Positions 3,460 through 34,708 of a stretch of 64,000 nucleotides of DNA are shown in pieces (position 1 is the first letter of the stretch; each line of letters starts with the position of its first letter). The stretch covers positions 15,055 to 79,054 of the forward strand of contig JAKAOF010000004.1 of assembly GCA_021823345.1 (NCBI GenBank), written 5' to 3'. The DNA is from Thermoplasmata archaeon. Its GTDB lineage: Archaea > Thermoplasmatota > Thermoplasmata > Lutacidiplasmatales > UBA184. Under the pieces are notes generated by a model. That model was given only the letters and a program-made list of their open reading frames with translations, was not told the origin of the DNA and made no database searches. Both the position numbers and the translations under genes were made by a program.

Positions 3460-3460
3460 G

Positions 3461-3964: not shown

Positions 3965-4127
3965 TGCTCGCGAAGAGACCGGTCCTCAGATAAGGCCTTC
4001 TTGTGCCCGCGAATTTCTCCTTGAGCGCTCACCGCCGGAGCTTTCGTCGGGAATCGACTCGGAGTCGATGGCGAAAGGCTTTTAGGTGGGCCCAGTGTGT
4101 GTCACAGCACCTCACGGGGTCATCAAC

Positions 4128-4685
4128 ATGCGTACGAGTGTTTGGCGGAACAATCGCCGGGGAGCCTTAGAAGGAGTGCCACTGTATCTGATCATCCTGA
4201 TCATCATCGCGGCCATCGTGGTCGTGATCGTGCTGGGATGGCTGGCTACCGTGCAACACCCGACGATCGGATCGGTCACGACGGTCGTAGCGGGGTCTAG
4301 CACGATGACCGTGAGCGGTAGTTTCACCTGCACCTCTACCTCGTACTGGTGCTTCACCCCGGTCAACTCGACGGGCGGTTGCCACTACATCTACAACCAG
4401 CCCACCACCGCCCCTGCGATCCAAGTGACGGTCCAGGACAATCACGGGAACAACCTGCAGGGCGCCACCGTCACCTTGACGGCGAGCGGCAGTCTCAACT
4501 TCACGGGTTCGAACATCGCCAACACCGGAACGAACGGCGTTGCCTCCTTCAGCCAGTTCTCCGGCTTCGTGGGCCCGAACACCCAGAGCGGGACGATCAC
4601 GGTCTCCGCCAACTACGCCGCGGGAGGAATCCAGAGCTCTCAGAACGGTGGGACGATCATCATCGATCCACCGGCGGGCTGCTGA
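4128..4685 (+). CDS. Prepilin-like secreted protein (class III signal peptide plus Ig-like/adhesin-like domain); paralog of 21970..22551
   Basis: Start at the in-frame ATG: MRTSVWRNNRRG|ALEGVPLYLIILIIIAAIVVVIVLGWL. The paralog has KRAALEGLPLYLIIMVVVAGVVIVILLSWL. Both end ...PP(A/Q)GC / IPPQC. TATA-like CTTTTAGG about 45 nt upstream. Confidence 0.65.
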   Translation: MRTSVWRNNRRGALEGVPLYLIILIIIAAIVVVIVLGWLATVQHPTIGSVTTVVAGSSTMTVSGSFTCTSTSYWCFTPVNSTGGCHYIYNQPTTAPAIQVTVQDNHGNNLQGATVTLTASGSLNFTGSNIANTGTNGVASFSQFSGFVGPNTQSGTITVSANYAAGGIQSSQNGGTIIIDPPAGC

Positions 4686-7700: not shown

Positions 7701-9349
7701 TTCCGCAATTCACGGTGCATCTCGTCGATCCGCAGAACGACTCGTCGAACATGGGCATCGCCCCCTACGAGACGAGCTGGTCAGTGTCCCTCCAGGGTTC
7801 CTTCTCGGTGGTGCTCACGAGCTCCCGGGAGAGTCTAATCTCCGGTGGAGTGCTACAACCGACGGTGCTCAACCTCAGCATTCCCGTCCATAGCCAGTCG
7901 ACCATCACGGTCTACACCCCATGGCCGCTGGGGAGCGGCTGGGACCCGAGCTCGAACCCGCTCCCCGGGGACCCGACGGTGCTCGAATCCCGCGCGCTCC
8001 TGGGGTTGGAAGGCCACGACTACCATTCCGGGTTCGGGGGCACGGGAGATCTCCTGCCAGGGATCTATCCGAGCGTTCCGCTCGACAACCTCCTCCTGCT
8101 GAGCGCGGCCGTGGGCCGCGTGAGCTCGACGGAAGGGCATTCGCTCGCCGAGCTCTTGGCCGGGTTGCCGGAGGTGGCCGCGGGCCGCTCGGCGCCATGG
8201 AGCCAGAACCTCACCGCCCTCGAACTGACCACGAATTCCGACCTTGCCGCCACCGCGGGCCCCTTCCTCTCGTGGGCGGGAGCGAACTTCTCGGTACTTT
8301 CCAATGACCTATCCTCCGCGGCCCAAGGGGGAGTTCCCTCGACCTTCACGGTCGGCGGGAACGGATTCTTCGGATACAACGCGACGGTGAACACCGACAC
8401 GGATGTCGTGAGCTATTTCGTCGGTCAACCGGCCGGGCCCGGGTACAACCCTCCGGAAGAGTACGCGCTCGCGTTCGGGGGCTCCCGGGTCGGAGATGCC
8501 TTCACGGTCGACAACCCGTACGTGGGGGCGAACCCGGGGACCCATGGCTTCTCCGGGACGTGGGGCACCTCGACGGCCGGGGCGTACGCACTTACCGGGA
8601 ACTGGCAGGAGTTTGGCAGCGTCTACTCGCTCTCCCTTTCAGGGCCCGCGCGACCCGGACCCACCGTTGGGAAAGGGGCCACCTATCCCGAGCTCTCGGT
8701 CCCGTATCTTCAAGGGATCACGGGCGGAGGCTACCCGGCCACCGTATCGGTCCAAGGCGTGGGAGGGATCCCTTCGGCGGCGCTCACCGCCTTTGGTCAG
8801 TCGCTCCCGGCGTCGGGGACCTCGGTGACCTTCCCCCGCTACGTCGCCCAAGAGACCTACGCGGGGGGTCGGTTCTACAATGCGCTCGTGGCGGGAAGCG
8901 TGCCCTCGAGCCCGGGCATCACCTCCATCGGGTATTCGACGGACCTCACCTGGGGGGGAGGAGCTTCCTCCAATTACTCCTTGGTCTTGGTCGACCCTAC
9001 CGGGGCGCTCTTCTCGACCCCGTCGGGAACGGCGGCTTCCGAGGCCTTCCTCCTGTGGCTGGACAACAACGCGGAGACCCTGGGCTACTCGCTGGGAGCG
9101 CCCTCGCCATACCTTACGATCCTCGCCTCGATCCCGTCCGGCCTCTTGTCGCCCGCGTATCGCAACGTGACCATGGTCTGGCAGGAGGGGCTGACCCCGG
9201 TGAGCGCCTATGCCTGGAGCGGTCCGAACATGGCGGCTCTCGAGGCGGACCTGGGAGGCTCCGGTGGTGGAATGGGGAACTCGCCCACGCTAAGTATCGG
9301 GGGCGGGGCGGCCGGGGGATGGGGCTTCACCGGTACCCTCACTGGGTGA
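4715..9349 (+). CDS. Giant (1544 aa) N-terminally membrane-anchored, heavily N-glycosylatable cell-surface protein; paralog of 16966..21684
   Basis: N-terminus MKRRLSRQDGRVPYSLVALVVLSSIFTLSVYFEQ (short basic leader plus one TM). More than 60 NxS/T sequons. Long colinear similarity to the 16966..21684 product, for example VDPQNDSSNMGIAPYETSWSV vs VDPQDSSVNMGIAPFETTWDV. The antisense 1026-aa ORF 4640..7720 is an artefact. Confidence 0.85.
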   Translation: MKRRLSRQDGRVPYSLVALVVLSSIFTLSVYFEQVALSTTSQSTYDVPGMTQMGIDRAESEISAVAQQDLMNVEVSLLGAGANPQLNLLNQSLNTEFTASMASLGFSTPQGLVVDNVVIRATSWGINATFSEGTTADVVPHVGLQTGTGVPLLPLASQVNSTNLTSYASTELPLYPMAVGHVMLTALDGNSGELLSTPYDFSVSVQSEIGLLEAQSAEFSDASWGSGSGLAKLVSYILTSLAELRALSGYGSGGYPGYQAGTVISGATGNSILSSADVHDAESLAVLLESLRYFRSFDGAAVNSLLSSLPPGPYEQLLARYVFNGTIDPATLYLLFLDAQGGWSDGWISSGAGLASAIYGFADRFKFDLLQRFWGNATVDPTLLEPVASWPTVQMQGMGFAQTMLLTWLWDYGSWLGVTQQSLPPEDSTAVIPPMVGSASDGFGNVCTYVLFPGGTIETSNPGVPNLADLILGTPQVEQISVPGNPNYNVYLAPNNYQVWENVSIDQPSAPYAYLNDAGNGLPNDWWIDFNENSTYITTHDSLLLLFNPMDTNPYDPGAFDRTLHSVLVDLSNSMQHKSSTASLVSDKGYLDYVGLTGDNVGGNSTITGTGMPDLSTTTGRNTALNTSYSYLTQGTSSMFGGPFSRALSNFSVASGNPANRTSWWVNGASHPALAGSGNPTSTVNGGVNWTMSAISSYPASEWFQMLYTLYYGSGGTIPAAPPPLSQINYNNMDQLVYNILSPGVEQTPPTGYQQPNFAVDVMNETFISVYCWITGDQSNYGNNIGCGSENGGPFCPNGGGGFFGGGCLGDTANSPFNPQANGNFFTGACNGNNQNPAFQRAINNWYLTGTGGLANMWTLVGNSVMQSLQGGVDQIHQLLQSSWQNVYNNTGNADWSGQNFTNWILRYIAPPILNDTSAMGTPGGWLNQIYRSTDQWLQTGTNLTGTVTKMDLNRGRPYSFSLGNASVEGADGQIFNESLRNMTFAFTGGTLDWSVPQFTVHLVDPQNDSSNMGIAPYETSWSVSLQGSFSVVLTSSRESLISGGVLQPTVLNLSIPVHSQSTITVYTPWPLGSGWDPSSNPLPGDPTVLESRALLGLEGHDYHSGFGGTGDLLPGIYPSVPLDNLLLLSAAVGRVSSTEGHSLAELLAGLPEVAAGRSAPWSQNLTALELTTNSDLAATAGPFLSWAGANFSVLSNDLSSAAQGGVPSTFTVGGNGFFGYNATVNTDTDVVSYFVGQPAGPGYNPPEEYALAFGGSRVGDAFTVDNPYVGANPGTHGFSGTWGTSTAGAYALTGNWQEFGSVYSLSLSGPARPGPTVGKGATYPELSVPYLQGITGGGYPATVSVQGVGGIPSAALTAFGQSLPASGTSVTFPRYVAQETYAGGRFYNALVAGSVPSSPGITSIGYSTDLTWGGGASSNYSLVLVDPTGALFSTPSGTAASEAFLLWLDNNAETLGYSLGAPSPYLTILASIPSGLLSPAYRNVTMVWQEGLTPVSAYAWSGPNMAALEADLGGSGGGMGNSPTLSIGGGAAGGWGFTGTLTG

Positions 9350-9737: not shown

Positions 9738-12713
9738 TCATCTCCACCGCGAGGACCCGGGGGTCCGAGAACGTCCCCCGCTCTTGGGGGCGTTGCCGAG
9801 GGCGCGACGCTTCCGGTAGAAGTAGAGCACGGCGAGCACGACCGCCGCCCCCCCGATCACGGCGACCGTGACGATGATCCCGAGCTCGGCGCCCGAGAGG
9901 CCCGAGCCGCCGCTCGGAGGAGGGGTGGTCTTCTTCGTGGTGTTGTTGCTGGTCGTGTTGTTCTTCGGCGGCGGAGGCGGAGGGGTCGACGGCTTGAGCA
10001 CGCTGATGGAGAGGGTCGCCCGGGCGCTGTACCCGAAGGAATCATTCACCGTGAAGATGGCGGTGTAGTTCCCCGGGTTCGCGTATTCGTGCGTGATCGT
10101 CCCGTTGTCAGGGAGGTTGGTGGCGACCGGGCCATCCCCATAGGTCGCGGTCACCGGGTTGTAGGAAGCGGAACCTCCGGTGGTGGTCCAACTGAAGGAG
10201 ACATTGAGCGGGGCGTACCCGCTCACGGTCGGGGCGTTGAGGGACAAGTTCACGTGGCCGAAGGTGTAGACCCCGCCCTCCAGGACGAGGGACGTGCCGG
10301 AGGCATCCGAGAGCGTGGCGGTGATGTTGTGGACGTTCTGGTAACCGGTGGTGGTGAAGGTGAAGCTCGAGGAGGATCCGTTCTGCGACGCATACCCCGG
10401 CGTGGACCACCGCGGGGCGGCGTAGGGGGTCGCTCCCCCGAAGTAGCTGAGGAGGAACTGGAAGTCGAACGGGATCTCCGCCTCGGGGGCGTTGGCGAAC
10501 ATGCTGGCCCCGAGCGGCGGGGCGGTCGTGAAGAGCGAGAGCGTCCCGTTCACGAGGGTGGACCCGAAGAGGAAGGCGCTCCCCGCGAAGAGCGTGAACG
10601 GGGTTCCCACCCAGCTTGACCCCAGCATCGGGGTGAGATTGGTGAGGGTCGACCCGGGGTATCCGATGAAGACGAGGGGATGGGACAGGTTGACGAGCGT
10701 GGTCCCCGAGAAGCCGCCCAAGAGGAGCGCTTCCCCGTCCACGGCGAGGGAGGTCACGTAGATCGGAGAGGGCGGGATGAGGAGGGGGTTCCCCGGGGTG
10801 GCGCTACCGGGGACCCAGGTCTCGACCCCCTTCCCGTCATAGATCCAGAACGCGCTGCCGTTCCAGGCGGCCTGGCTCTGGGCGACCAGGGGGATCGTGG
10901 ACCCGAAGAACCCGGAGATGTTCTGGAACGGGGAGAACGCGCTGGCGTTGAAGAACCACGCCAGCCCGGAGAGGTTCGAGCTCTCGCCCCAGACGAGCGC
11001 GCTCGTGGGCGAGGAGGGCACGAGGGCGGTGATCGCGTACGCCGGGCTCAGCAATCCCGCGGACTGCGAGGTCCAGCTCGACGTGGCAAAGTCGTAGCTT
11101 TGCAGCAAAGCGGCCGAGCCGCCCTGGGTTCCACCGGCCCACAGCGTGCCATTGACCCAGGCGAGGACGGAGACGGCCGCGTTGGGAATGAGGGCGAGCC
11201 GCGTGACCGATCCCCCCGTGAGCGGGATCTCGAGGATGAGGGACTGGTTGGCGACGAAGAGGTTGCTCCCGTGGATGGTGGAGGCGACCGGATTGTCGAA
11301 GCCCGTGGGGAGGAGCGAGCCCACGGACACCGAGGAATGGGTCGACAAGTTGTACAGGAGGCCCGCGCCTTCCGTCCCGTTGTTCCCGCCGAGCCAGGCC
11401 ACTCCCGAACCGTAGGAAAGGCTCCCGACGGAAGTGATCCCGGAGGGGAGGGAGGAAAGGACGATCGGGCCCGAACCGGACCAGGAACCGAGGAACCCCC
11501 CGTTCTGTACCCGATACCCTCCGACGAGGAGGGTGGTCCCGGACCACGCCAGCGACTCCGGCACGGTCGCGCTGGTCCACGCCGCGGCGGAGAGGGTCTG
11601 AGCGACCGAAGTGGCGGCATCGAGCTCGAGGATCCCGCCGGGAGAGGCCAAGGTGAAATTGGTCGTGGTCCGGGAATCGGCCGAGGCGGCCGTCGGCAGG
11701 CCGAGGGTCGTGGCCGCCGCCGTCACGTTCGCAAAGGCCCCGGTCTGGAGGTTAAGCATCCCGAAGACCGTCACGCTCGTCAGGTTCACGGTGGTGCTGA
11801 GCAGCACCCAGGGGCCGTTGGCGGCCCAGAGGGAGACGGGCGAGGTGAAGCTGGAAGTGGCCGGAAGGTCGGCCGAGAGGTTCCGGAGGACCCAGGTACC
11901 GGCCGAGGGGTACAGGAGACCCAGGGTGTTCCCGGAGGAGTTTGTGGCGAGCAGCACCCCGGAGCGCGTCCCGAGGAGGCCCGAGGGAGTTCCCCAGGTG
12001 GACGGCACGTATCGGCTCACGTTCACAAAGCCGAGGGTGGAGTTGTAGGCGATGTACTCGGGAGCGAGGACGGCATCCGTTCCGAGGAGGAGCGTGAAGT
12101 TGTTGGACGTCGCCCCTCCCGACAGCGAGGCCAGCCCGGAGGGAGGGAGGAGCTTCTGCGCGGTGCCGCTCGAGTTCATCTCGATGACGAGCGGGCTCCC
12201 GGTAAGACCCGAGAAGGCCCCGTTCCACAGGAGGACCGAGGAGGTCGAGCCGGACAGGAGGCTGCCCGAGAAGGCGTGGTAGGCCGCGAGGTTCGCCAGG
12301 TCGGACTTCGAGAGGGGGCCATAGGCGGTGGCGCTCGTGTCCGCCAGCTTCCCGGAGGAGAGCAGGCCGGTCTTGGGAAGGCCCGTCCCGTTGTCCACGC
12401 CGAGGGCGAAGGTCGTTCCCCCCGACAACGGCCATAGGCCGGTCACCTGGGACCAGGAACCTCCCGCGACCGAGGGCACCATCGGCGAGATGTTGGTAAC
12501 GGGCTCCGCCGTGGAGTTGCTCGTGATGTACGTCCAGTTGGTCTGTTGCGGACGGGAAGCGCTTCCGGTGGGGGGGAAAAATTGAGCCGAAGAGGGCGAT
12601 CCATGGGACGAGGCGAACGCGTTGCCCCCTCCCGAGACCACCAGCACGGCGAGGACCGCGAGCGGAGCGAGCAGCGAGAGAAGACCCTGGGGGCGTACGG
12701 GGGTACGTTTCAT
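9738..12713 (-). CDS. Secreted repeat-rich (likely beta-propeller) surface protein with a PKD domain, Thr/Pro-rich stalk and C-terminal TM anchor
   Basis: Signal peptide MKRTPVRPQGLLSLLAPLAVLAVLVVSGGGNAFA. PKD-like segment PLNVSFSWTTTGGSASYNPVTATYGDGPVATNLPDNGTITHEYANPGNYTAIFTVNDSFGYSA. Stalk STPPPPPPKNNTTSNNTTKKTTPPPS, then TM LGIIVTVAVIGGAAVVLAVLYFY and a basic tail. Confidence 0.8.
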   Translation of the reverse strand: MKRTPVRPQGLLSLLAPLAVLAVLVVSGGGNAFASSHGSPSSAQFFPPTGSASRPQQTNWTYITSNSTAEPVTNISPMVPSVAGGSWSQVTGLWPLSGGTTFALGVDNGTGLPKTGLLSSGKLADTSATAYGPLSKSDLANLAAYHAFSGSLLSGSTSSVLLWNGAFSGLTGSPLVIEMNSSGTAQKLLPPSGLASLSGGATSNNFTLLLGTDAVLAPEYIAYNSTLGFVNVSRYVPSTWGTPSGLLGTRSGVLLATNSSGNTLGLLYPSAGTWVLRNLSADLPATSSFTSPVSLWAANGPWVLLSTTVNLTSVTVFGMLNLQTGAFANVTAAATTLGLPTAASADSRTTTNFTLASPGGILELDAATSVAQTLSAAAWTSATVPESLAWSGTTLLVGGYRVQNGGFLGSWSGSGPIVLSSLPSGITSVGSLSYGSGVAWLGGNNGTEGAGLLYNLSTHSSVSVGSLLPTGFDNPVASTIHGSNLFVANQSLILEIPLTGGSVTRLALIPNAAVSVLAWVNGTLWAGGTQGGSAALLQSYDFATSSWTSQSAGLLSPAYAITALVPSSPTSALVWGESSNLSGLAWFFNASAFSPFQNISGFFGSTIPLVAQSQAAWNGSAFWIYDGKGVETWVPGSATPGNPLLIPPSPIYVTSLAVDGEALLLGGFSGTTLVNLSHPLVFIGYPGSTLTNLTPMLGSSWVGTPFTLFAGSAFLFGSTLVNGTLSLFTTAPPLGASMFANAPEAEIPFDFQFLLSYFGGATPYAAPRWSTPGYASQNGSSSSFTFTTTGYQNVHNITATLSDASGTSLVLEGGVYTFGHVNLSLNAPTVSGYAPLNVSFSWTTTGGSASYNPVTATYGDGPVATNLPDNGTITHEYANPGNYTAIFTVNDSFGYSARATLSISVLKPSTPPPPPPKNNTTSNNTTKKTTPPPSGGSGLSGAELGIIVTVAVIGGAAVVLAVLYFYRKRRALGNAPKSGGRSRTPGSSRWR

Positions 12714-12804: not shown

Positions 12805-15800
12805 CTAGGCGGACCGGGGGGAGTTAACCGCTACCCGGGCCATCCAGCCCAGTGGGGGCAGGACCAAGAGGTGTGGTGGGACAAAGTGAAGGGCAACGAC
12901 CCCGGCCCCCAAGGGCCCTTCACTCTGAGAGGGGGAGTGCGTGATGGATTTTGCGCTGGTCGAGGTGATGTGGATGAGGACCCAGGGACCCATGCCACTC
13001 CCCATGGACCAGGGAGCTCCCTGCTGGGAAGTGGTGTGAGCGTCCACCAGCACGTTGCCTCCGGTGGTGGACACCACCACGGCCACGTGCCCGATGACCG
13101 TACCGCCCTCGTAGTAGCCGACGACGTCCCCCGGGCTCAACTGGGAGGCGCTCGTCACTTGGGTCCCGTCGTGGGCGTGCCCGTTGTACGCTCCCTGGCC
13201 GAGCAGCCAGTTGACGAGGTCCGGGGCGGAGGGGTCCCCCGACACACCGCCGCCGTAGGTGTTCGGCACGGAGAGCCCACCGGCATCCAGCGAATTGCTG
13301 ACGAAGTGGGCGCACTCGAGGCCGTGATAATAGAGGCACCCCGTTCCTCCGGGGGTGTTGATGGAGAGAAGAGGGGTGCCTGGGGAGTAGGATAGGACCT
13401 GTCCGTTTCCGTACCCGCAATCGGAGTCGGCGAAGAACTTGCCGTCGGAGAGGACCTTGTCGTAATAGTTGTTGGCGTAGCTGACCACGGCCGCGGTGTT
13501 GTAGCTGCTCCCGCCCGAGGAACTCTGGGTGAGGCAATTGAGGTTGGGGCACACGCTGCTCCAGGGGAGATTGGCGGCATTCTGACCGCCGCCGGGGCAG
13601 GCGACCGGGCCCGTTCCGGACCAGCCGGTCGGGGCCCACTTGCAATAGGCGCCCGAGAGATAGCTTCCCCAGAAGTTGTACGTGTTCACCTGGTAGTAGG
13701 CATAGGCCCACTGGAACGCGCAGGTGGGGTTGAAGTAGATCCCGCCCCAGTTGCCGCTGTAGGTCGAGCAGCTGGAGGGGTTGTAGTTCCCGATCGGGAA
13801 GGCCCCGCCAGACGGCGGGTTCTGCCCGGAGGTACCCTCCTGGAGGATGCCCTCGGCCCGGGCACCGGAGCCCGGGTTGACTTGGCTGCATGAGCCGCTT
13901 CCGCTCTCGATCGCCCCGCCGCAGAAGCCGCTCTCCTGGTAGGCCATCGAGACGAACGTGATGACGAGGTTGTTGGAGAAGCCCGCGGCGGCAGCGCAGT
14001 CGACGGTCTCCTGCAGGTTGAGCTGGGTGGACTGATCGTAGAAGTTCGAGTTGGGGCAGCCGGCGCCGTAATTGCCGCCTCCGCCGGTGCTATTGCCGCC
14101 GCCCGTGCCGGTGCCGCCGCCGCCCGTAGAGGTTCCGCAAGCCGCCGTGGCGCAAACGCCGTTCTCCAGATCGTAGACGAAGTTCCAGAAGGTGGCCCCG
14201 GGGACCGAGGCGTTCCCGTCGTCCAGGGCGAACCAGCCCTGCTTCGAGAAGCTGTTGTAGGCCGACCAGTTCGCCTCGGCCTCCATGTCCAAGAGGGCAT
14301 TGGGGCTGCCGGAACAGGCCATGGAACTCTGGAGCACGCCCACGTCCGAGGTGCCGAGGAAGTGGGTCGCCTGGGAGAGCGCCGTCTCGTAGCCCGAGAG
14401 CGAGCAGGTGAAGTCCTCCAGGTACCAGGTGACGCCGGTCAGGGTCCCGAGGGCATTGTAGTACCACAGGTCTGACGCGGACGAACCGGCCGAGGGAGAC
14501 CCGGGCGGGGGAAGGAACACGATGAGCGAGTGGAGCCCGCTCGATTTGAGCGCGGAGGCGAACTGCTGGATGAAGGAGGCGTAGTGGGTCCCCAGTGAAC
14601 CCGAGGCCCCCGTGAAGCAGGAATTCGGTGCGAGGTCGAGGATGTACCCGTTGTAGCCCTTGGCCTTGGCCACGTTGATGGCCTCGGTGATAAAGTTCGC
14701 CCAGAGCCCCGAGTTGCCGAGGAAGGTCGTGAGCGAGAGCTGACTGCAGGATCCCCCGGCCGTGATGGCCATGTAGAGCGGTTTGCTGTTGGTGTGCGCC
14801 CAGGTGGCGATGTCATCCTGGGAGTTAGCGAACCACGGGGCCGGGCCGAACCAGTCCTTCGCCGAGGAGCTGACCTGGTAGCCGAACTCCGTCACCGAGT
14901 TCATGTCCGGGGCCAGGCTCGAGTAGGTCGCGGAGAACGCGCTCGAGTTCCCGATCCAGGTGCACGCCTGGCAGACGACCGGCATGTAGGAGATGGGCGG
15001 AGGCGGCGCCAGTCCGCCCGGACCGCTCCCGCCGCCCGTGCCGCCGGGTCCGGTCCCTCCTCCACCGGAGGAGCGCTGGACCACGAGTGAAACCGTGGCC
15101 CGCGCGGAGGAACCGCTCTGGTCCTTGACCGTCACCACGACCGAGTAGGTGCCTCCCGAGGAGGGAGCGCAGGTGAGCGTGCTGAGGTCCGAGGAGCTGC
15201 ATCCCGGTGGGAGCCCCGAGTAGCTGTAGGTGTAGGGGGTCTTGCCGCCCTTCACCGTGACGCTGAGGGTGGTGGGGTTGCCTACCGTGACGGTCGAGGG
15301 ATTGGCGGTGAAGGAACTCACCGTGAGCGGGCCGGTCGCCCCGCCAGAGGAACACCCGTTGGGCCACTGCCACAGCAGCCACTCCTTGCTGAACAGCTGC
15401 CAGTTCCAACCGGGGTTCCAGATGAGGATCTTGTCGACCCCCGCATCGATCTCGAGGCCCGCCGTCAGGCTGAGACAGTAGGTGATCTTGGAGAGGGTCG
15501 CCTCCAATTGGGCCTGGAACTCGAGATAGGGCTCGATGTAGAAGTACGCCTGGAACAGCGTGAACGAGAAGAAGGAGGGACACCAGTTCCCGAAGATGGT
15601 GTCGGCGCAGAAGCCGAGGTCGACATCAAAGTTGATGTTGGGGATCTTCGCGAAGAGCTTGACGGTGAAGTCGGCATCGAGCTTGGGGGGACTATAGGTG
15701 GTGGTCAGGGGACTGACGTCGTGGATCATCTGCAGCCCTTGCCCGGCCTGGTACTCGGCCCCGAGCTTGGCGCTCGAGACGAAGCTCACCGAAGACCCCA

Positions 15801-16833
15801 CGGATCCGCTGACCTCGACATCGATGCCCAGGATGAACTGCGGCTGGAAGACGAAGTTCAACGATGCCCCGAACGAGAGGACCCCGAGGTCGATGCTGAG
15901 GCCGGGGATCCCAAACCCGAAATTGAGCGAGGGGAGGTTGTACGTCCACTGTTTGGACCACTCACATTTCGCCGATATCTGGGCGGAGAGCGTCAGGGTG
16001 TTCGTGAAGGTGAAGTAGGTCGCGATCGACTGGATGTGGATGAAGGGGAAGTTCCAGTCAAGCGTGACATCGATCGAGATGGTGAAGGTGACCTTGACCT
16101 CATCTTGGGCCCCGACGAAGAGATTGGCCGAACAGATCGAGTTATGGGGGGAGAAGGAGAATCCCTGCGAGAAGGTCTGGTCGAAGAGGGTGACGGTGAG
16201 GCTCGCGTCCGGGAGCGGGGACAGCGGCCCGTACATCGCCTGGGCCTGGGCCATGGTGACGGGGTAGGCCGCGTAGAGCTGCCCGTTCACAATGATGTCG
16301 GTGATGTTCCCGGGTAGGGTATAGGCGACCAGGAGACCGTTGCTCTCGGAGGTGGACACCACGAGCCGGAAGATGTCGCCGCCGGACCCCCCGGGGGCGG
16401 CGCCCCCCAGGAGGACGGCCCCGGCGTGGACCTGCTGCACGGTGCTCGAGGTCGCATCAAAGTAATAGAAGCCCCCGGCGGATCCCACGAGCGCAGGAGC
16501 CCCGGAGGTGTTGAGGTAGACGAGGGCCTTGTTGACCATCACGTTCTCCTCGTGGATGAGCAGATGGTCCCCGTAGAAGGTGCCGTTGGGTTGCCGGGCG
16601 AACTGGTCATTGAGCACGATCGACTGGGCCGCCTGCTGGTCCTGGGTGAGGACGGGGGTCGGGGAGCGGGGGACGGAGGAAGCTACGGGGGCCGATGTGG
16701 TGGCGAGGGAGTTGGCGGAGGTGGGCCACGAACTCAGAACAAAGACGAAGGCGAGTGCGACCGGTAGAGCCGCGGTCCAGAAATTATGGCGAGCGATACT
16801 TCGGCCTTTCTGAACTACGGTTTTCCAAAGCAT
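12805..16833 (-). CDS. Secreted multidomain cell-wall hydrolase-like protein: PKD domain, GH18/25-like region, SLT lytic-transglycosylase motif and C-terminal CHAP-like Cys/His peptidase domain
   Basis: N-terminal signal/TM WTAALPVALAFVFVLSSW. PKD: TLSVTVKGGKTPYTYSYSGLPPGCSSSDLSTLTCAPSSGGTYSVVVTVKDQSGSSARATVSLVV. SLT hallmark: SMAYQESGF ... GARAEGILQ (compare xxQESxfNP ... GLMQ). CHAP-like: GLECAHFVSNSL ... GTVIGHVAVVV (Cys ... His). Gly-rich linkers between domains. Confidence 0.8.
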   Translation of the reverse strand: MLWKTVVQKGRSIARHNFWTAALPVALAFVFVLSSWPTSANSLATTSAPVASSVPRSPTPVLTQDQQAAQSIVLNDQFARQPNGTFYGDHLLIHEENVMVNKALVYLNTSGAPALVGSAGGFYYFDATSSTVQQVHAGAVLLGGAAPGGSGGDIFRLVVSTSESNGLLVAYTLPGNITDIIVNGQLYAAYPVTMAQAQAMYGPLSPLPDASLTVTLFDQTFSQGFSFSPHNSICSANLFVGAQDEVKVTFTISIDVTLDWNFPFIHIQSIATYFTFTNTLTLSAQISAKCEWSKQWTYNLPSLNFGFGIPGLSIDLGVLSFGASLNFVFQPQFILGIDVEVSGSVGSSVSFVSSAKLGAEYQAGQGLQMIHDVSPLTTTYSPPKLDADFTVKLFAKIPNINFDVDLGFCADTIFGNWCPSFFSFTLFQAYFYIEPYLEFQAQLEATLSKITYCLSLTAGLEIDAGVDKILIWNPGWNWQLFSKEWLLWQWPNGCSSGGATGPLTVSSFTANPSTVTVGNPTTLSVTVKGGKTPYTYSYSGLPPGCSSSDLSTLTCAPSSGGTYSVVVTVKDQSGSSARATVSLVVQRSSGGGGTGPGGTGGGSGPGGLAPPPPISYMPVVCQACTWIGNSSAFSATYSSLAPDMNSVTEFGYQVSSSAKDWFGPAPWFANSQDDIATWAHTNSKPLYMAITAGGSCSQLSLTTFLGNSGLWANFITEAINVAKAKGYNGYILDLAPNSCFTGASGSLGTHYASFIQQFASALKSSGLHSLIVFLPPPGSPSAGSSASDLWYYNALGTLTGVTWYLEDFTCSLSGYETALSQATHFLGTSDVGVLQSSMACSGSPNALLDMEAEANWSAYNSFSKQGWFALDDGNASVPGATFWNFVYDLENGVCATAACGTSTGGGGTGTGGGNSTGGGGNYGAGCPNSNFYDQSTQLNLQETVDCAAAAGFSNNLVITFVSMAYQESGFCGGAIESGSGSCSQVNPGSGARAEGILQEGTSGQNPPSGGAFPIGNYNPSSCSTYSGNWGGIYFNPTCAFQWAYAYYQVNTYNFWGSYLSGAYCKWAPTGWSGTGPVACPGGGQNAANLPWSSVCPNLNCLTQSSSGGSSYNTAAVVSYANNYYDKVLSDGKFFADSDCGYGNGQVLSYSPGTPLLSINTPGGTGCLYYHGLECAHFVSNSLDAGGLSVPNTYGGGVSGDPSAPDLVNWLLGQGAYNGHAHDGTQVTSASQLSPGDVVGYYEGGTVIGHVAVVVSTTGGNVLVDAHTTSQQGAPWSMGSGMGPWVLIHITSTSAKSITHSPSQSEGPLGAGVVALHFVPPHLLVLPPLGWMARVAVNSPRSA

Positions 16834-16839
16834 GAAGGC

Positions 16840-16965
16840 TACCCCCCCGTCCCCTGCTTACCATGTTATATTGTCGCAGGGCCATATTAAGGTGTCTGTT
16901 ACGTGTAACGGACGGAGGCAGAAGACCCTCCATTTTTCTTCCGTGAAGTTGGAAAAAACAGGGGC
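16840..16965 (-). promoter_or_regulatory. AT-rich intergenic region with TATA-like elements, putative promoter of the SLT-CHAP hydrolase gene
   Basis: Only AT-rich stretch in the neighbourhood (ccatgttatattgtcgcagggccatattaaggtg ... ggaaaaaaca). Sits immediately upstream (minus strand) of the Met at 16833. Confidence 0.3.
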
Positions 16966-19900
16966 TCACTGTTCGCTCAGGCTGCCTTGGTAGGTGTATG
17001 TGCTGCTCGACGCCCCGCCCAGGTCCACCACGGCGCTCGAACTCCCCCCATCGAGCAATCCTCCCATGTCGGCCTCCATGGAGGCGAAGTTGGGATCGTT
17101 GAACGCGGCCGCGGGGTCCGTGAGGGCGACCGGAGTGGGTTGGAAGGCGCCGATGCCATAGGTGGAATTCCATCCGACGCTGGGAAGCAGCGAGCTCGAC
17201 ATCCATCCGGCCTGAGGAGCGCCCACCTGAGGCTGGGCCATGAGGGCGAGCGCCATGTAATCGGGGGCCGACTCATTGAGCGAGTACCCCATCACGCGGT
17301 TCGCCGACACGTCCCACAGGAGGAACGCATCCATGTTCGCGGCGGTGATCCCGCCCGCCGGGGTGAATATCACGCTGGTCGAGGACCACAATTGCCCACC
17401 GGGCATCTGGAGGGCCGTTCCCCAGCGCCACTGCTGGCTCGGGAGAGTACACCCGGTCGACTGCTGGAGGCAGTCGAAGAGGTAGCCGGCCAGGTACTGC
17501 TCGGTCGTGACGTAGGTGTCGAAGGTGGGGGAGGTGGTCTTCATCCAGTTCTGGTAGGCCTTGGTCAACTCGGTCTGGGTGGTCCCGAGCCCGGACGGAG
17601 CCCCTCCGACGTAGAGCGAGGCGGTGCTCGCGGTATACCCGTCATGGGGTACCAAGAGCGAGCTCAGCCCCGGTGAGTACGCCCAGAGCTGCTGCGAGAT
17701 GGGGTGGCCGGGACCGGTGAGGTCGAGCCGCGAGGTCACGCCGCTCTGGTTCCAGAATCCCAGGAGGGACCAGGAGGAACCGGGGGCCTTCCACATCGAC
17801 CGCAAGGTCATGTTGGCATTCCCGGGATCGTACTCCACGGTACCGGTGATCGAATTGGTGGTGAGGGACTCGGTCGCCTCGAACACGTCGGAGCGGGAGT
17901 TCACCGAGGTGCCGCCCTCGCCCGACTGGAAGTTGGCATAGTGGGATTGCAGGTTGAGGCTCGTCATGTTGTCGCCGAAGAACGTGTGATAGTTGAGCGC
18001 CAGGACGGGAGTGAGCATCGAGCCCGAGGCAAGGTGCAGCTTTCCTTGGATCTGCCCCATGAGGGATAAGAACACCGAGGAGCTGTACTTCGCCACGGAG
18101 TTGTACGCCAGGCCGTCCCACTGGACATCCTGCGATAGCGCCAGGGAGAGCGCCGGTCCCCCGTCGGGACCCGCGTCGGGGAGGTTCGAGAGCATCGCGG
18201 CCTCGTCGGCGGTCTCGTTCTTGGCGATGATGGACGCCCCGTGCAGGGCCACGAGGAGCTTGTTGAGGAGGGGCGAGACGTAATCTCCGGGGAGGAACAC
18301 CCAGTTCGCCGGACTGCTCCCGAGCGGTTTGTAGTCGTAGCTGAAGGTGGCCGGATGACCGACCACCAGTCCCAGGAGCCCCCGCGTCTCCAGGGGGATG
18401 GGATCCGTCTTCTGGAGGATGTTGCTTTGGAGCGGCCAGGGGGTCTCGATCGTGACCGGGAAGTTCGCGCGTAACGGAACCTCGATGGTCAAGGTGGTGT
18501 TGTGGAGCTTCCCTCCCTCGAGCAGCTCCTTCTGCGGGTCCGATATCGTCAGGCGGACCGTACCTCCCATGAACACGTCCCACGTGGTCTCGAAGGGAGC
18601 GATCCCCATGTTGACCGAGCTGTCCTGCGGGTCGACGGTATGTACGCAGACCTGGGGCTGGGTGAGGGAGTAGGTCAGGGTACCGGGCGTTCCGCTCTCG
18701 CTGTAGTACGAAACGGAGTCCAGGTTGAGCCCCGGGACCGATTCCACACTCCCGTCCGTTAGCGCTGCCGAGCGGGTCCCCTGCCAATACTCGTACGGCA
18801 TGTTCCGCTGCAGGTACGGGGAGTAGGGCAGGGACTGCTCGCTCGCCATGTTCTCTGTCCATTGCTGGGACGATTCGTAGATCCCCGGGATCCATTGCTC
18901 GGCGAGCGACCCCGTGTTCTGGTAGATCGAGGTGGGGTCCGGGTTGCCCGAGGCCAGACTGGGGATGTCCACGTAGGTTTCGATGAACCCTCCCGCGCCC
19001 GAGAACGAGTTTCCCTTCCAATCCGCCTTGCCGGTGTAATGCTGGATATTGTTCCAGGAGGTCGTGATGAGGGAGAACTGGGAGTTTCCGCTGCCGATGG
19101 TCGGGGTGCCGGCCTGTTCCACCAGCCCGAGCACCTGGGACCAGAGGTTCTGCTGGTCGTTGTAGTACATCGCGGAAGCCTGGAGGAAGGGCTCGCAGGT
19201 GTACGGCTGGTCGCAGTCGTCCTGGCCGGTGAAGGTCGATGCGGCGGCGTTGGCGTAGAGGGCGCACTCCTGGTCCACCTGGGCAGGTCCGGCCCCGGAT
19301 CCTTGGAAGCCGGGGGCGAAGAGGAACCAGTCGAGGTTTCCCTGGCCGCCGTTCCAGCTTCCCTCAGAACTGCCCATCCAGGCATAGATGTCGTCGAAGG
19401 TCGCGGACTGGACATCTTCCCGGAAGTTCGGTTCGTAAAGGTACTGGGCCGGAGGGACCGGAAGCTTGCCCGCAGCGGGACTGACCCAGAGCCCATCCTC
19501 CGCGGAGGAGGTCTGTACCGGGGCCCCGCTGGGGAGCGTGGGATCGATGTCCCCGTTCATGCCGTAGTAGAGGTTGTAGTAGGTCATGTACCACAACCGG
19601 GCGCCCAACCGGGCGGTGTCGGAGAGGGAGTAGGTGGTATGTACCGAGGGGCCGGTTCCGACCCCGGAGACGTGTTCGGCCCCGGTCACCCACCAGTTGT
19701 CGAGGTTGGACGGCGTGTTCTGGGAGCTGATGTAGCCGGTCGCGGCCCACAGCGTGGAGTATTCGGCGGCGCTCCCCTGGGTGAGGTAAGAGTAGCTCGA
19801 ATTCAACACGTCCGAGCCCGTGAGGGTGGGTAGCCCGTTGGCCGAGGGCCCCATCTTCGCCATGGCACGTGCGATGGTGTCCACGTAGCCCGACACCTTG

Positions 19901-21684
19901 GTCTGGGCGTACTGCTCGGACATCGACTGGTTCAGGTTCTGGATGATCTTGGTGACCGTGTAGTTCGCCGGATAGTTTCCATTGTAGGAGCTCCCGGTGT
20001 ACTCCCCGAGCAGGGACTTGTCCACCAACTGGTAGGAGAACTTGTGGGACAACTGGTAGTTGGGCGAGCCTTGGAAGGAGCTGATGTCGAGGCGGGTGTG
20101 GAACACGAAGGGGTCCGGAGAGTATCCCCCGCTCGCCTCGTTGCCCACCAGGAGGTTGTCCATGGTGGGGACCTTCGGGACGTTGATCGCGAGCGTGGTG
20201 CTCGGGAGCATCACGTAGGTCGCGGGCACGTAGATGATGAAGGGAGGACCCCCACTGTCGGGGACCACGTAGCAGCCGACCTCGGCGGTCGATTCGAGGG
20301 GCCCGAGGTTCCCGGTGGCGCTTTGCGCGTTCAGCGAGTGGGTCGCGCAGGCCCAAGAATTCTCGACCGGGGGATCGCCGCCGTTCGTGACCGGCGGGTT
20401 ACAGATCGCGACCCCGAGCCAATTGGCATAGTCATTGGCGTACTCCGTGACCCGAGCGTACGCCCATTGGTCCACGATGGAGGCACCTTGCTGCCAGATG
20501 TCTTCCCAGGTGGCCACCGGTTCGAGCAGCGTGGGGTCGACCACGTAGTTGCCGAAGTAGGTGTAAAGGATGTCGTAGGTGAAACGGTCGACGAAGCTGT
20601 ACACCGACTGGGCCAGCGTGGCTCCCACCTGGCTCGTGGCGGTGGTCGGGCTCTTGCCCATCGACTGCATGAGGAACAGGAAGAGCGCGGCGCTGTCCAC
20701 CGTTCCATTGCTGACATACTTCTGGACCAGGGAGTCCAGGGGAGAATGGCCCGCGCCGAAGGCATCGGTCGCGTGCGTGTCGTACGTTCGGAAGGATTGG
20801 AGGGTGGTCAGCAGGAGCGCCAAGTTGCCGGCGAGAGATATGTCCGAGGAAGGGAGCACGCTCGCCACGGAAGTACTGGGTCCGTACGGTCCGCCGCCTA
20901 CCCCCTCGAGGGCATTGAGTTCGCCGACGGTGGTGAGGATGTACTGGGCGAGCCGGGTGAACTCGGCCTCGGGACCCTCGACCGAGTTCGTGAAGGACTC
21001 GGCGGAGGACTCGAGGAGGCCCAAGGCGGACTGGGGGCTTTCCACGAACGGGAAGGTGGCTTCGGAAAAGGCGCCGGAGGTGTTCTGGTAGGCAAACAGT
21101 TGGATCGACCCCACGACGGCCGGATACGGGGTCACGGACGCGGGCGTGGTGGCAAGGTAGGTGTTCTGGGCGGATGGCCCCACGGGCGCGGAGGAGGAGG
21201 GGTCCGCCTCGGACACCGTGGGATAGAGTCCTTCGGAGTGCAGGGAGGGGAAGGTGACGTGCACCCACCAAGAGCTGATGCAGACGACGAACGGGTCCTC
21301 GATCACCGCGTTCTTGCAGGCGGGCATCGAGCCGGACGCGGCGAAATGCATGGGGAAGTTCGTGCCCACGTAGGACCCCACATCGGAATCCACCTCCTGG
21401 TCGACCAAGGTGAGGTTGGGGTTCACGACGGTCCCATCCTGGAGCCCGGTCGCCACCCGGCTCAGCAGGGCGAGGGTGGCGTTCTTCTCGATCGCCTGGG
21501 AGGCGGTCCCCAGGATCGTGGAGGAGGATTGCGAGGCGGTCGTCCCCCCGTTGAGCAGCAGGTTCTGTTCGCTCACGAGAAGGGAGCTGCCGATGATCAA
21601 CACGGCCGACAGGAGCACGATCGCCACGAATGAATATGGTATCCGGCCCGAACGAGACCGGGAGAAGCCTCGGCGATTTCTCAC
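16966..21684 (-). CDS. Giant (about 1570 aa) N-terminally membrane-anchored surface protein; paralog of 4715..9349
   Basis: Start set at the in-frame GTG giving VRNRRGFSRSRSGRIPYSFVAIVLLSAVLIIGSSLLVSEQ, colinear with MKRRLSRQDGRVPYSLVALVVLSSIFTLSVYFEQ. The 76 ORF residues upstream of it look non-coding. Sequon-rich, with multiple conserved blocks shared with 4715..9349. Confidence 0.8.
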   Translation of the reverse strand: MRNRRGFSRSRSGRIPYSFVAIVLLSAVLIIGSSLLVSEQNLLLNGGTTASQSSSTILGTASQAIEKNATLALLSRVATGLQDGTVVNPNLTLVDQEVDSDVGSYVGTNFPMHFAASGSMPACKNAVIEDPFVVCISSWWVHVTFPSLHSEGLYPTVSEADPSSSAPVGPSAQNTYLATTPASVTPYPAVVGSIQLFAYQNTSGAFSEATFPFVESPQSALGLLESSAESFTNSVEGPEAEFTRLAQYILTTVGELNALEGVGGGPYGPSTSVASVLPSSDISLAGNLALLLTTLQSFRTYDTHATDAFGAGHSPLDSLVQKYVSNGTVDSAALFLFLMQSMGKSPTTATSQVGATLAQSVYSFVDRFTYDILYTYFGNYVVDPTLLEPVATWEDIWQQGASIVDQWAYARVTEYANDYANWLGVAICNPPVTNGGDPPVENSWACATHSLNAQSATGNLGPLESTAEVGCYVVPDSGGPPFIIYVPATYVMLPSTTLAINVPKVPTMDNLLVGNEASGGYSPDPFVFHTRLDISSFQGSPNYQLSHKFSYQLVDKSLLGEYTGSSYNGNYPANYTVTKIIQNLNQSMSEQYAQTKVSGYVDTIARAMAKMGPSANGLPTLTGSDVLNSSYSYLTQGSAAEYSTLWAATGYISSQNTPSNLDNWWVTGAEHVSGVGTGPSVHTTYSLSDTARLGARLWYMTYYNLYYGMNGDIDPTLPSGAPVQTSSAEDGLWVSPAAGKLPVPPAQYLYEPNFREDVQSATFDDIYAWMGSSEGSWNGGQGNLDWFLFAPGFQGSGAGPAQVDQECALYANAAASTFTGQDDCDQPYTCEPFLQASAMYYNDQQNLWSQVLGLVEQAGTPTIGSGNSQFSLITTSWNNIQHYTGKADWKGNSFSGAGGFIETYVDIPSLASGNPDPTSIYQNTGSLAEQWIPGIYESSQQWTENMASEQSLPYSPYLQRNMPYEYWQGTRSAALTDGSVESVPGLNLDSVSYYSESGTPGTLTYSLTQPQVCVHTVDPQDSSVNMGIAPFETTWDVFMGGTVRLTISDPQKELLEGGKLHNTTLTIEVPLRANFPVTIETPWPLQSNILQKTDPIPLETRGLLGLVVGHPATFSYDYKPLGSSPANWVFLPGDYVSPLLNKLLVALHGASIIAKNETADEAAMLSNLPDAGPDGGPALSLALSQDVQWDGLAYNSVAKYSSSVFLSLMGQIQGKLHLASGSMLTPVLALNYHTFFGDNMTSLNLQSHYANFQSGEGGTSVNSRSDVFEATESLTTNSITGTVEYDPGNANMTLRSMWKAPGSSWSLLGFWNQSGVTSRLDLTGPGHPISQQLWAYSPGLSSLLVPHDGYTASTASLYVGGAPSGLGTTQTELTKAYQNWMKTTSPTFDTYVTTEQYLAGYLFDCLQQSTGCTLPSQQWRWGTALQMPGGQLWSSTSVIFTPAGGITAANMDAFLLWDVSANRVMGYSLNESAPDYMALALMAQPQVGAPQAGWMSSSLLPSVGWNSTYGIGAFQPTPVALTDPAAAFNDPNFASMEADMGGLLDGGSSSAVVDLGGASSSTYTYQGSLSEQ

Positions 21685-21935
21685 GATACGTTTACCCTGG
21701 TCTGTATAAGTGGCGAGCGGTAGAAAAGCCCTTCGACACGAAAGAACCCGTAAGGACCCGTTTGGACGGGATCCGTCCGAGCCGGGCAGGGTCCCTGTGA
21801 AGACCCGTGCGGTGCCACAAACAATTGCTTGGCCCAACCCTAGGCGCGTCGTGTTGGCAGATGCGTGGGCCGACCGCCCACGACGTGTCGAAAAGCCGGT
21901 ATAGAAACACATTTCTCACCGGTGTCTGTCGCAAC

Positions 21936-21969: not shown

Positions 21970-22551
21970 TTGATGCAACACATGCACCGGCGTTTCAATG
22001 TGGACAAGAGAGCCGCGCTCGAGGGCCTTCCGCTCTATCTGATCATCATGGTAGTGGTGGCAGGCGTCGTCATTGTGATTCTGCTTTCGTGGCTCTCGTC
22101 GGTGAACCATGCCGGGATCGGTTCCATTTCCGCGAGCTTCTACGGAAAGGGGAACATCGCGGTCGACATCGGCGGCCCATCCTGCAAGACCGCCAGCACG
22201 GCCTACAACCTCTGCTACAATTCGGGATCCGCCGGCACGTGCGACTTCACGAACAATCCCTCGGCCACCGCCAATGGCGAGGCGTTGGTCGTTTCCGTCT
22301 ATGATACGAAAGGCAATGCTCTCAGCGGGGTTTCCGTCCAGCTGTCGTTGAGCGCCGGTTTCGACTGGGGAGCGATCCCCACTTCGGCCACGACCCTCGC
22401 TAACGGAAGCGCCCTGTTCGCGAGCCTCACCGGCCACATCTCGGCGAACACGAACTCGGGCACCCTCACCATCACCGCGACGGACTCCTCCGGTACGAGC
22501 ACCACGCAGTCGACCCAGCTCGTTATCAACGTAATCCCGCCTCAGTGCTGA
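21970..22551 (+). CDS. Prepilin-like secreted protein (class III signal peptide); paralog of 4128..4685
   Basis: MMQHMHRRFNVDKRAALEGLPLYLIIMVVVAGVVIVILLSWL, then a Ser/Thr/Gly-rich domain ending IPPQC. Divergent from the giant paralog gene and immediately upstream of the 969-aa surface protein. Confidence 0.65.
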   Translation: MMQHMHRRFNVDKRAALEGLPLYLIIMVVVAGVVIVILLSWLSSVNHAGIGSISASFYGKGNIAVDIGGPSCKTASTAYNLCYNSGSAGTCDFTNNPSATANGEALVVSVYDTKGNALSGVSVQLSLSAGFDWGAIPTSATTLANGSALFASLTGHISANTNSGTLTITATDSSGTSTTQSTQLVINVIPPQC

Positions 22552-29450: not shown

Positions 29451-29455
29451 CGGTT

Positions 29456-34702: not shown

Positions 34703-34708
34703 CGAACG

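Follow-up and report, generated by a model that had tools for sequence, protein, structure and literature searches.

What would a secreted enzyme with wall-degrading motifs do for an archaeon that has no wall of its own to degrade? The question is raised by one gene in the window (a stretch of 64,000 nucleotides from a Thermoplasmata archaeon). The producer is regarded as wall-less, and Thermoplasmata have no murein. The gene occupies positions 12805..16833 on the minus strand and encodes a multidomain protein of 1342 amino acids that is predicted to be secreted. The reading frame, reported in an earlier note made from the letters of the DNA, was found there in full and is of coding type (GC3 0.88); the same gene is called in the public contigs, and full-length orthologs share about 60-62% identity with the product. 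An archaeal-type GAPDH, an FlaI/GspE-type ATPase and a Thermoplasmata MAG that carries an ortholog confirmed the archaeal host proposed at the same time. We consider it moderately probable, from the sequence, that the product is exported and hydrolyses bacterial peptidoglycan as a modular enzyme. Because the producer is without murein, the substrate would have to come from other organisms.

The N-terminus (aa 1-44; 16702..16833, minus strand) was examined by inspection and by hydropathy. It has the layout of a putative Sec-type signal peptide or signal anchor, with a basic n-region (K4, K9, R11 and R15), a hydrophobic core of 18 residues (aa 18-35) and candidate cleavage sites of the AxS/SxA kind (A40-N-S42 or S42-L-A44). 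Using windows of 19 residues, a single stretch of the whole protein (aa 17-36) exceeded 1.6. These features agree with the signal peptide claimed earlier or with an uncleaved signal anchor; the N-terminus appears to be of the secretion type, and export would proceed via Sec. The C-terminal tail (aa 1291-1342; 12808..12963, minus strand) is borderline hydrophobic and poorly conserved, and since it is not conserved in the orthologs it is probably no anchor.

Profile searches of Pfam and the PDB identified aa 1108-1290 (12964..13512, minus strand) as an Amidase_6 module, a cysteine amidase/peptidase related to NlpC/P60 and CHAP. Pfam Amidase_6 (PF12671) scored 49.6 bits with the whole protein and 54.2 bits with the module alone (cut-off 23.2), and the match contains both the ECAHFV (C1174) and GHVAVVV (H1249) motifs. 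On the same stretch CHAP (PF05257) remained marginally below its cut-off (25.8 versus 26.0 bits, E = 1.5e-5), as did NLPC_P60 by a larger interval (15.1 versus 23 bits). Amidase_6 is the better assignment than CHAP; the Cys/His pair that had been called CHAP/NlpC-P60-like stands as an invariant pair within a related family, without either of those two families reaching its threshold. In the PDB profile search 16 of the 17 weak matches to the module were NlpC/P60- or CHAP-type cell-wall peptidases. The predicted nucleophile Cys1174 (codon 13312..13314), the predicted catalytic His1249 (13087..13089) and His1266 (13036-13038), the likely third residue of the triad, all on the minus strand, are invariant in this protein, its orthologs and the proteins P0033 and P0012.

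Cleavage of the glycan strand is predicted for the preceding module, a Cys-rich lysozyme-like domain with SLT-type motifs (aa 925-1100; 13534..14061, minus strand), which contains both AYQESGF (E967) and AEGILQ (Q998). Four residues of these motifs (E, G, Q and G) do not vary in an alignment of 24-25 homologous domains. Glu967 of the 'QES' motif (codon 13933..13935, minus strand), the predicted catalytic acid, is the single invariant acid of the family, as in GH23, and no second invariant Asp or Glu equivalent to Asp52 was found in this alignment. The AF2 model of the domain (pLDDT 85.6) has the lysozyme-like alpha+beta fold and matched lysozyme-superfamily folds only, with weak Foldseek E values of at least 0.035; its closest structural similarity is to c-type lysozyme (GH22). 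In the model, helix 38-51 ends with Glu967 (E50 in domain numbering). Aligned by hhalign with Escherichia coli Slt70, AYQESGF falls opposite ARQES and AEGILQ opposite GLMQ (E = 9.2e-5, probability 59%, 42 columns). Pfam SLT (PF01464) gave no match to the whole protein or to the module on its own, even with E<=10 allowed, and a search of the PDB by sequence with the profile of the module returned nothing. Relatives gave sub-threshold Pfam matches only (SLT 17.9 bits, SLT_3 21 bits, Phage_lysozyme2 19 bits). The SLT-type motif proposed in the earlier note is upheld by residue conservation, modelled fold and the Slt70 alignment and not by the Pfam family; among Amidase_6, SLT, CHAP and NLPC_P60, Amidase_6 was the one to exceed its cut-off. 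The module resembles the Family 1 lytic transglycosylases of Pfam SLT (E. coli Slt70 and MltE; phage phiKZ gp144) and the c-type lysozymes (GH22) in its lysozyme-superfamily fold, in the placing of the catalytic Glu (predicted here), which ends a helix and has Ser next to it, and in the G-(L/I)-(M/L)-Q motif. If active, it would represent a new lineage of the superfamily, with SLT-type motifs on a scaffold like that of c-type lysozyme.

The region upstream (aa 614-897; 14143..14994, minus strand; 70% identity to the orthologs) is related to GH18. No Pfam match was found for it; with its profile, all 30 PDB matches were GH18 proteins and the motif region was aligned (best 4q6t, E = 6.1e-5), the sporulation glycosylase YdhD also being among the best relatives. 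The DxxDxDxE motif of GH18 is not intact. It reads Y-I-L-D733-L-A735-P (LDLAP) here and LDFTP in the orthologs, compared with DIDWE or NIDWE in distant relatives, so that the position of the proton-donor Glu is held by Ala735 (codon 14629..14631, minus strand) and by Thr in the orthologs. Of the GH18/25-like region suggested previously, the GH18 homology remains and the catalytic Glu does not; because this residue is missing, the region is probably a binding module and no third enzyme, a barrel expected to bind glycan without cleaving it. The inactive GH18 'chi-lectins' (e.g. YKL-40/CHI3L1) likewise have a GH18-related barrel with a non-acidic residue in place of the catalytic Glu; here the barrel is deduced from the profile only and glycan binding is predicted. 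Similarity to the GH18 enzymes that act on peptidoglycan (Bacillus subtilis YdhD/YaaH type; PDB entries 3cz8 and 4q6t) is at profile level only (E = 6e-5). If the protein is active, it would add an example of a GH18 barrel reused as a targeting module.

The domain that had been called PKD (aa 499-588; 15070..15339, minus strand) matched PKD (PF00801; 17.7 versus 23.5 bits) and He_PIG (15.9 versus 24 bits) below the Pfam thresholds over aa 507-585; phage decoration proteins in the PDB (E ~1e-3) and Hoc-like proteins in PHROG (E = 1.8e-5) were also matched. 'Ig-like' is the safer label, the Ig-like similarity being retained and the PKD family not. The remaining third of the protein (about 440 residues) is a lineage-specific, apparently beta-rich N-terminal domain (aa 61-498; 15340..16653, minus strand), for which neither a Pfam match nor a homolog outside the orthologs was found; the AF2 single-sequence model has a pLDDT of 34. 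Pfam detected no peptidoglycan-binding domain (LysM, SH3/SH3b or PG_binding) in the protein.

Identity to the orthologs differs along the protein. It is highest in the two predicted catalytic modules (84-85%; Amidase_6 84%) and lowest in the N-terminal domain, which evolves fastest (43-44%). This distribution bears on the proposal that the product is a catalytically inert surface adhesin made from decayed enzyme folds. The GH18-like module demonstrably lacks its catalytic residue and the neighbouring genes encode large surface proteins with Ig domains, as such an adhesin would have it; however, neither the Glu of the lysozyme-like module nor the Cys/His/His of the amidase varies, and both sets of residues lie in the two most constrained modules; we regard this explanation as highly improbable.

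A lysozyme/SLT-type module and a Cys-His module of the CHAP/NlpC-P60 clan behind a secretion-type N-terminus, the combination claimed for this archaeon, was recovered. Peptidoglycan hydrolases are recognised by just such a pairing of a glycan-cleaving with a peptide- or amide-cleaving domain. The hydrophobic signal at the N-terminus and the ten conserved Cys residues of the lysozyme-like module look like hallmarks of an extracellular protein. After export by Sec, the two modules would attack both kinds of murein bond: aa 925-1100 would cut the glycan strand through Glu967, as a lytic transglycosylase or muramidase, and aa 1108-1290 would cut either within the stem peptide or at the MurNAc-L-Ala amide bond through Cys1174-His1249-His1266. 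The barrel with Ala735 and the Ig-like domain most likely serve to keep the enzyme bound to glycan that contains GlcNAc, and the orphan N-terminal domain may give specificity for a target or surface. Neighbouring bacteria would be lysed, as antagonism, and/or their cell-wall material harvested as food; an antibacterial role is what we infer. The same parts could serve nutrition on chitin, fungal wall or another GlcNAc polymer, with the lysozyme-like module acting as a GH23/GH19-style chitinase, the barrel binding chitin and the Cys peptidase trimming associated glycoprotein. This is unlikely, since the Pfam and PDB relatives of the Amidase_6/NlpC-P60/CHAP module are cell-wall amidases and endopeptidases, this module is conserved as strongly as its lysozyme-like partner, and loss of the GH18 catalytic Glu would be odd in a dedicated chitinase. 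Further archaeal proteins also have the lysozyme-like module fused to a Cys peptidase (Amidase_6 in P0012, NlpC/P60 in P0017), again the mark of a peptidoglycan hydrolase.

The earlier note had suggested horizontal acquisition of the gene; as a recent event this was not supported. The gene and the neighbouring archaeal genes have the same GC3 (0.86-0.93 along the gene), no close bacterial homologs were found among the 1.8-5.8 billion proteins searched, and wherever the genomic context of a relative was informative, it was archaeal. The gene also sits in an island of about 21 kb, with synteny conserved in two other MAGs. The modular, lysin-like architecture would suit a lysin gene recently transferred from a bacterium or phage, or an autolysin remodelling pseudomurein; one ortholog MAG is labelled 'bacterium', and the GH25 lysin of Aciduliprofundum boonei is reported to have come from Bacillaceae-like bacteria. 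Among 1.8 billion proteins, however, the two middle modules are represented only about 22 and about 5 times, in no case with a bacterial context. The nearest relative of the amidase module is just 38% identical, viral matches were absent, and of the two syntenic MAGs one is a Thermoplasmata genome and the other, the 'bacterium', carries the same archaeal island. To our knowledge pseudomurein is confined to Methanobacteria and Methanopyri, which makes its remodelling here unlikely, and it is not cleaved by lysozyme-type enzymes. We regard recent transfer, or a pseudomurein autolysin, as highly improbable.

The island contains pilin-like proteins and giant surface proteins (1544 and 1648 aa) and adjoins type-IV-filament loci. 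Ig domains occur in the large surface proteins beside the gene. In such surroundings the product might assist the filament machinery by 'hole-punching' or remodelling, acting where the filaments touch the wall of another cell, a bacterial or archaeal partner, or on the envelope glycans of its own cell. Analogues would be flagellar FlgJ and, in bacterial type IV secretion, the SLT+CHAP hydrolases VirB1/PrgK/TraG. The envelope of Thermoplasmata holds no murein to breach, though, and other members of the family are found in unrelated genomic contexts. The gene moreover appears to have its own promoter, a TATA-box-like AATATAA (16866..16872, minus strand) read about 35 nt upstream of the ATG, and an oligo-T run (16953-16958) follows the stop codon of the upstream gene for the 1648-aa protein. 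We give this explanation a small chance. An equally slender one is given to a wider proposal, in which the lysozyme-like module and its recurrent Cys-peptidase partners would be a wall-degrading toolkit of archaeal origin that has long been present in Thermoplasmata instead of being borrowed recently from bacteria, and that in this lineage might be joined with the pilin-like and giant surface proteins in a contact-dependent apparatus gripping and opening bacterial cells for predation or parasitism.

For a secreted peptidoglycan hydrolase, the reading preferred here, the stable position in a conserved surface-filament island provides a concrete locus for asking whether Thermoplasmata contact bacteria. 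Were it active, the protein would be a dual-action lysin, possibly acid-adapted, with potential antibacterial use. Archaeal attack on bacteria has been documented only recently. Archaeal enzymes of such a kind are already known; the modules of this one are too divergent for standard domain screens to pick it up.

Bacterial bifunctional hydrolases that pair SLT/lysozyme with CHAP/NlpC-P60 domains include PrgK/TraG of Gram-positive conjugation, the phage tail lysin phi29 gp13 and the T6SS effector TseP; they come from bacteria or phages and act on the wall of the producer or of a bacterial target. Compared by architecture, the present protein differs in that its producer is an archaeon without murein. 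Archaeal modular peptidoglycan hydrolases have been described, e.g. Woldo/Danwoldo of Halogranum salarium (Strock et al. 2025, PLoS Biol, PMC12352652); they are proposed, and in part shown, to kill bacteria, with Thermoplasmatota among the richest phyla (PMC12352652). They were defined there by at least one listed Pfam catalytic domain together with at least one listed Pfam wall-binding domain, the catalytic list (S10) containing Amidase_6, CHAP and SLT (PMC12352652). Current surveys of Pfam catalytic-plus-binding architectures place peptidoglycan hydrolases in about 5% of archaeal genomes. The protein has a catalytic domain of this list in Amidase_6 and no wall-binding domain in Pfam, and so lies outside that screen; Amidase_6 is its sole Pfam match. 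Pfam-based screens can miss multidomain candidates of this sort, with rare, divergent, apparently archaeal glycosidase and binding modules, and the true archaeal repertoire may therefore be larger. Like the Woldo/Danwoldo type, it would be a secreted archaeal protein with peptidoglycan-cleaving domains, two catalytic modules here replacing the one M23 domain there.

The nearest tested precedent for pairing glycan with amide cleavage, by analogy within the same phylum, is the A. boonei lysin (UniProt B5ID12 / WP_008084055.1; SH3_3+Amidase_6+Glyco_hydro_25), the bactericidal activity of which is reported as shown experimentally (Metcalf et al. 2014, as cited in PMC12352652). Both proteins come from Thermoplasmatota and join Amidase_6 to a glycan-cleaving module of the muramidase type. 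The A. boonei glycosidase is a GH25 domain of another fold, whereas here a Cys-rich lysozyme-like (GH22/GH23-like) module undetected by Pfam is found; in place of its SH3_3 wall-binding domain, the present protein has a GH18-like barrel without the Glu, one Ig domain and a 440-residue orphan domain; and in contrast to its reported recent acquisition from Bacillaceae, the present gene bears no sign of recent transfer.

The target gene (12805-16833, minus strand) is an open reading frame of 1342 residues with the codon-position GC profile of a real gene (GC3 0.88, in a window of 65% GC). Gene calls for this protein, identical or 99% identical, exist on public contigs 30-170 kb in length, and all of the sequence strings quoted in the earlier note were located in it. 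The GAPDH of the window matched PDB entries 1cf2, 2czc, 1b7g and 2yyy (E = 1e-93 to 1e-106), which we take to be archaeal-type enzymes. The nearest matches of the secretion ATPase at 31566-33827 were 2oap (presumably archaeal GspE), CpaF and FlaI. Scans of the window for tRNAs and against Rfam were empty, and there were no matches in NCBIfam. Two full-length orthologs (about 60-62% identity) were found in the GTDB genomes, in MAGs titled 'Thermoplasmata archaeon FK3.bin56' and 'bacterium DX1.bin10'. The locus from the latter (L002; JAKBKR010000008.1, 'bacterium isolate DX1.bin10') has the archaeal island found in the window and in FK3.bin56, at 54-77% identity; because the MAG holds this island, its 'bacterium' label is probably wrong.

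The module at residues 925-1100 was not detected by Pfam. It was found in about 22 representative proteins in an exhaustive search (lengths of 194-2100 residues, most with N-terminal hydrophobic signals). In their alignment Glu967 (QES), Gly995, Gln998 and Gly1000 (GILQEG) were invariant, and the serine after Glu967 and several cysteines were nearly so. Relatives of the module gave sub-threshold matches to the lysozyme-type Pfam families SLT, SLT_3 and Phage_lysozyme2. Since the SLT-like profile had no match in the PDB by sequence, a fold comparison was needed. The AF2 model obtained with a 24-sequence alignment was confident (pLDDT 85.6, pTM 0.87); Foldseek returned c-type lysozymes and lactalbumins exclusively, with weak E-values, and the predicted structure is closest to GH22. 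The family profile was also aligned with the catalytic domain of Escherichia coli Slt70 using hhalign (E = 9e-5, probability 59%), which paired VSMAYQES with MAIARQES and AEGILQE with ASGLMQI. With motifs I and II of the SLT type and only one invariant acid, the region is a divergent lysozyme-like module; the SLT motif proposed earlier was thus read correctly in substance, but the module falls outside Pfam SLT.

Residues 1108-1290 matched Pfam Amidase_6 at 54 bits (cut-off 23.2). A CHAP/NlpC-P60-like pair had been suggested here; the HMMER check placed Amidase_6 above its cut-off, whereas CHAP (25.8 against 26) and NlpC/P60, overlapping the same stretch, stayed below threshold. Cys1174, His1249 and His1266 do not vary among the orthologs and two relatives (P0033 and P0012). 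A small profile of this stretch gave weak matches in the PDB, 16 of the 17 being NlpC/P60- or CHAP-type cell-wall peptidases (for example CwlO, MepS/Spr and LytN), and a word-index homolog search with the amidase module gave one match (38% identity). Constraint within the target is strongest on the lysozyme-like and amidase modules, which have 84-85% identity to the orthologs; the N-terminal domain has 44%. Fusion of the lysozyme-like module to a Cys peptidase recurs in P0012, where an Amidase_6 module lies right beside it, and in the relative P0017 (NlpC/P60).

A lysozyme-type module cleaving glycan strands and an NlpC/P60-clan module cleaving stem peptides or amides, joined by flexible linkers and accompanied by accessory binding domains, make up the standard design of peptidoglycan hydrolases. 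Because of this two-module design and a precedent in the same phylum, we favour the reading that the target is secreted and acts against bacteria as a bifunctional murein hydrolase, which on the sequence and model evidence appears rather likely. The benefit to the producer would be the killing of competitors or feeding on wall material. An inert adhesin would suit the GH18-like module described below, with its replaced catalytic residue; with both catalytic modules so strongly constrained, we regard it as highly improbable.

Lysine and arginine are nearly absent from the two catalytic modules (window 12964-14061, residues 925-1290), where they make up 2 residues in 176 and 2 in 183, and the lysozyme-like module of the target contains ten cysteines. 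Both features may be those of an exoenzyme adapted to acidic or otherwise harsh surroundings.

Residues 1-44, with a basic n-region, a hydrophobic core of 18 residues and AxS/SxA sites (assigned by eye and hydropathy), form the sole strong hydropathy peak of the target and are compatible with a Sec signal peptide. The orphan domain at residues 61-498 (43-44% identity to the orthologs) had no match in Pfam; homologs beyond the orthologs were not found, a word-index search returning nothing. Prediction of the N-terminal domain by AF2 as a single sequence, without an alignment, was of low confidence (pLDDT 34, pTM 0.19) and the model was used for no search. Residues 499-588 gave sub-threshold PKD and He_PIG matches and a weak likeness to phage Hoc/decoration proteins. 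They are predicted to be an Ig-like domain, a safer label than the PKD domain named earlier. The modules are separated by Gly-rich linkers. Conservation across the orthologs is lacking in the last 50 residues; for this reason, and because the tail is only borderline hydrophobic, a C-terminal membrane anchor was rejected.

The module at residues 614-897 is carried by five other proteins, as found when 1.8 billion representatives were searched exhaustively with HMMER. Its profile had 30 matches in the PDB, all of them GH18 (best 4q6t, E = 6e-5, with the catalytic-motif region aligned) and including the sporulation glycosylase YdhD (3cz8). At the motif site the target has L-D733-L-A735-P and the orthologs have L-D-F-T-P; (D/N)-I-D-W-E is retained in the distant relatives. 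The whole orthologous group has therefore lost the proton-donor Glu, although the module is 70% conserved among the orthologs. An active GH18 chitinase module was rejected on account of the replaced Glu. Of the GH18/25-like region claimed in the earlier note, the GH18 relationship is thus supported at profile level. By analogy with chi-lectins, we infer that the module would serve as a non-catalytic glycan binder. That the target is an enzyme for chitin or another GlcNAc polymer would fit the GH18 relationship; with the GH18 motif lost, and with an amidase module of cell-wall peptidase type, we consider it unlikely.

The relatives P0024, P0026, P0027 and P0029 (for example L012:10001-13321) form an archaeal GH18-like family undetected by Pfam, with (D/N)-I-D-W-E intact and the module N-terminal in secreted proteins of 790-1100 residues. 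These proteins may be active glycosidases.

The horizontal acquisition proposed earlier finds no support as a recent event because GC3 is even along the gene and the same as in its neighbours, the ortholog loci are collinear, a scan of viral contigs for relatives was negative and the informative contexts of the relatives are all archaeal (Pilin_N beside P0005, LonB and RFC beside P0017, an archaeal helicase domain for the GH18-like P0024). Recent transfer from bacteria or phage was therefore rejected; the folds may still have come from bacteria long ago. A word-index search with the full protein returned only the target itself and Ig-domain matches, and a JGI metagenome scan with full-length alignment found no relatives. 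Among the window ORFs scanned against Pfam there were no murein or pseudomurein synthesis genes. We see very little probability that the target is a pseudomurein autolysin or was imported recently from bacteria or phage.

Genes at 4086-25454 are collinear in both ortholog loci (54-80% identity) and encode a 199-residue pilin-like protein, a 1544-residue giant, a 991-residue anchored protein, the target, a 1648-residue giant, a 193-residue pilin-like protein and a 969-residue Big_1 protein. The giants (4715-9349, plus strand; 16966-21912, minus strand, 1648 residues by mechanical ORF start) are paralogs, 27% identical from end to end. Neither has a Pfam domain; both have an N-terminal hydrophobic segment of pilin-like type, are kept in the ortholog loci and may act at filament tips or as adhesins. 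The true start of the second is probably downstream of 21912, because the public call of the same gene has 1554 residues and the hydrophobic segment starts at about residue 95. Each giant is accompanied by one small Big_1-like protein of 193-199 residues (4086-4685 and 21970-22551; 38% mutual identity). The gene directly downstream of the target (9738-12713, minus strand; syntenic with it in both ortholog loci, L002 and L003) encodes the 991-residue protein. Its signal peptide, single weak PKD domain, Thr/Pro/Asn-rich stalk and basic-tailed C-terminal transmembrane anchor are those of a typical archaeal surface protein of the anchored kind.

A type-IV-filament-like locus lies at 27806-37793 (minus strand), with a FlaI/GspE/CpaF-type ATPase (31566-33827, minus strand), a 706-residue probable membrane platform protein (29456-31576, minus strand) and small proteins with pilin-like N-termini ('RRG + hydrophobic helix'). 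A paralogous locus at 231-3964 (minus strand) extends past the left window edge; its genes at 231-1040, 2779-3459 and 3461-3964 have 26-44% identity to 33692-34702, 36616-37332 and 37173-37793. That the target is a 'hole-puncher' associated with filaments and tied to the island around it would fit this setting; we consider it unlikely and give it slightly less weight than the GlcNAc-polymer enzyme. DUF835-containing proteins occur in the window (49808-51637, minus strand; 609 residues, with a List_Bact_rpt-like stretch) and near P0005 (L005:14334-17417), which may be coincidence.

The precedent for a secreted murein hydrolase is the A. boonei lysin, from the same phylum, listed as SH3_3+Amidase_6+Glyco_hydro_25 and described as killing Bacillaceae (PMC12352652). 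According to the same source, modular peptidoglycan hydrolases occur in about 5% of the genomes of archaea, with Thermoplasmatota prominent among them (Strock et al., 2025; PMC12352652). Their screen required a Pfam wall-binding domain and such a screen would not retrieve the target. As to membership, the target is a bona fide Amidase_6 protein, belongs to the lysozyme superfamily but lies outside Pfam SLT, and is a GH18 relative without the catalytic motif. Its predicted function places it among the archaeal peptidoglycan hydrolases, a class already known; what is surprising is that its lysozyme-like family is rare and apparently archaeal, that a GH18 barrel has been recycled and that the gene has a stable place in a surface-filament island.
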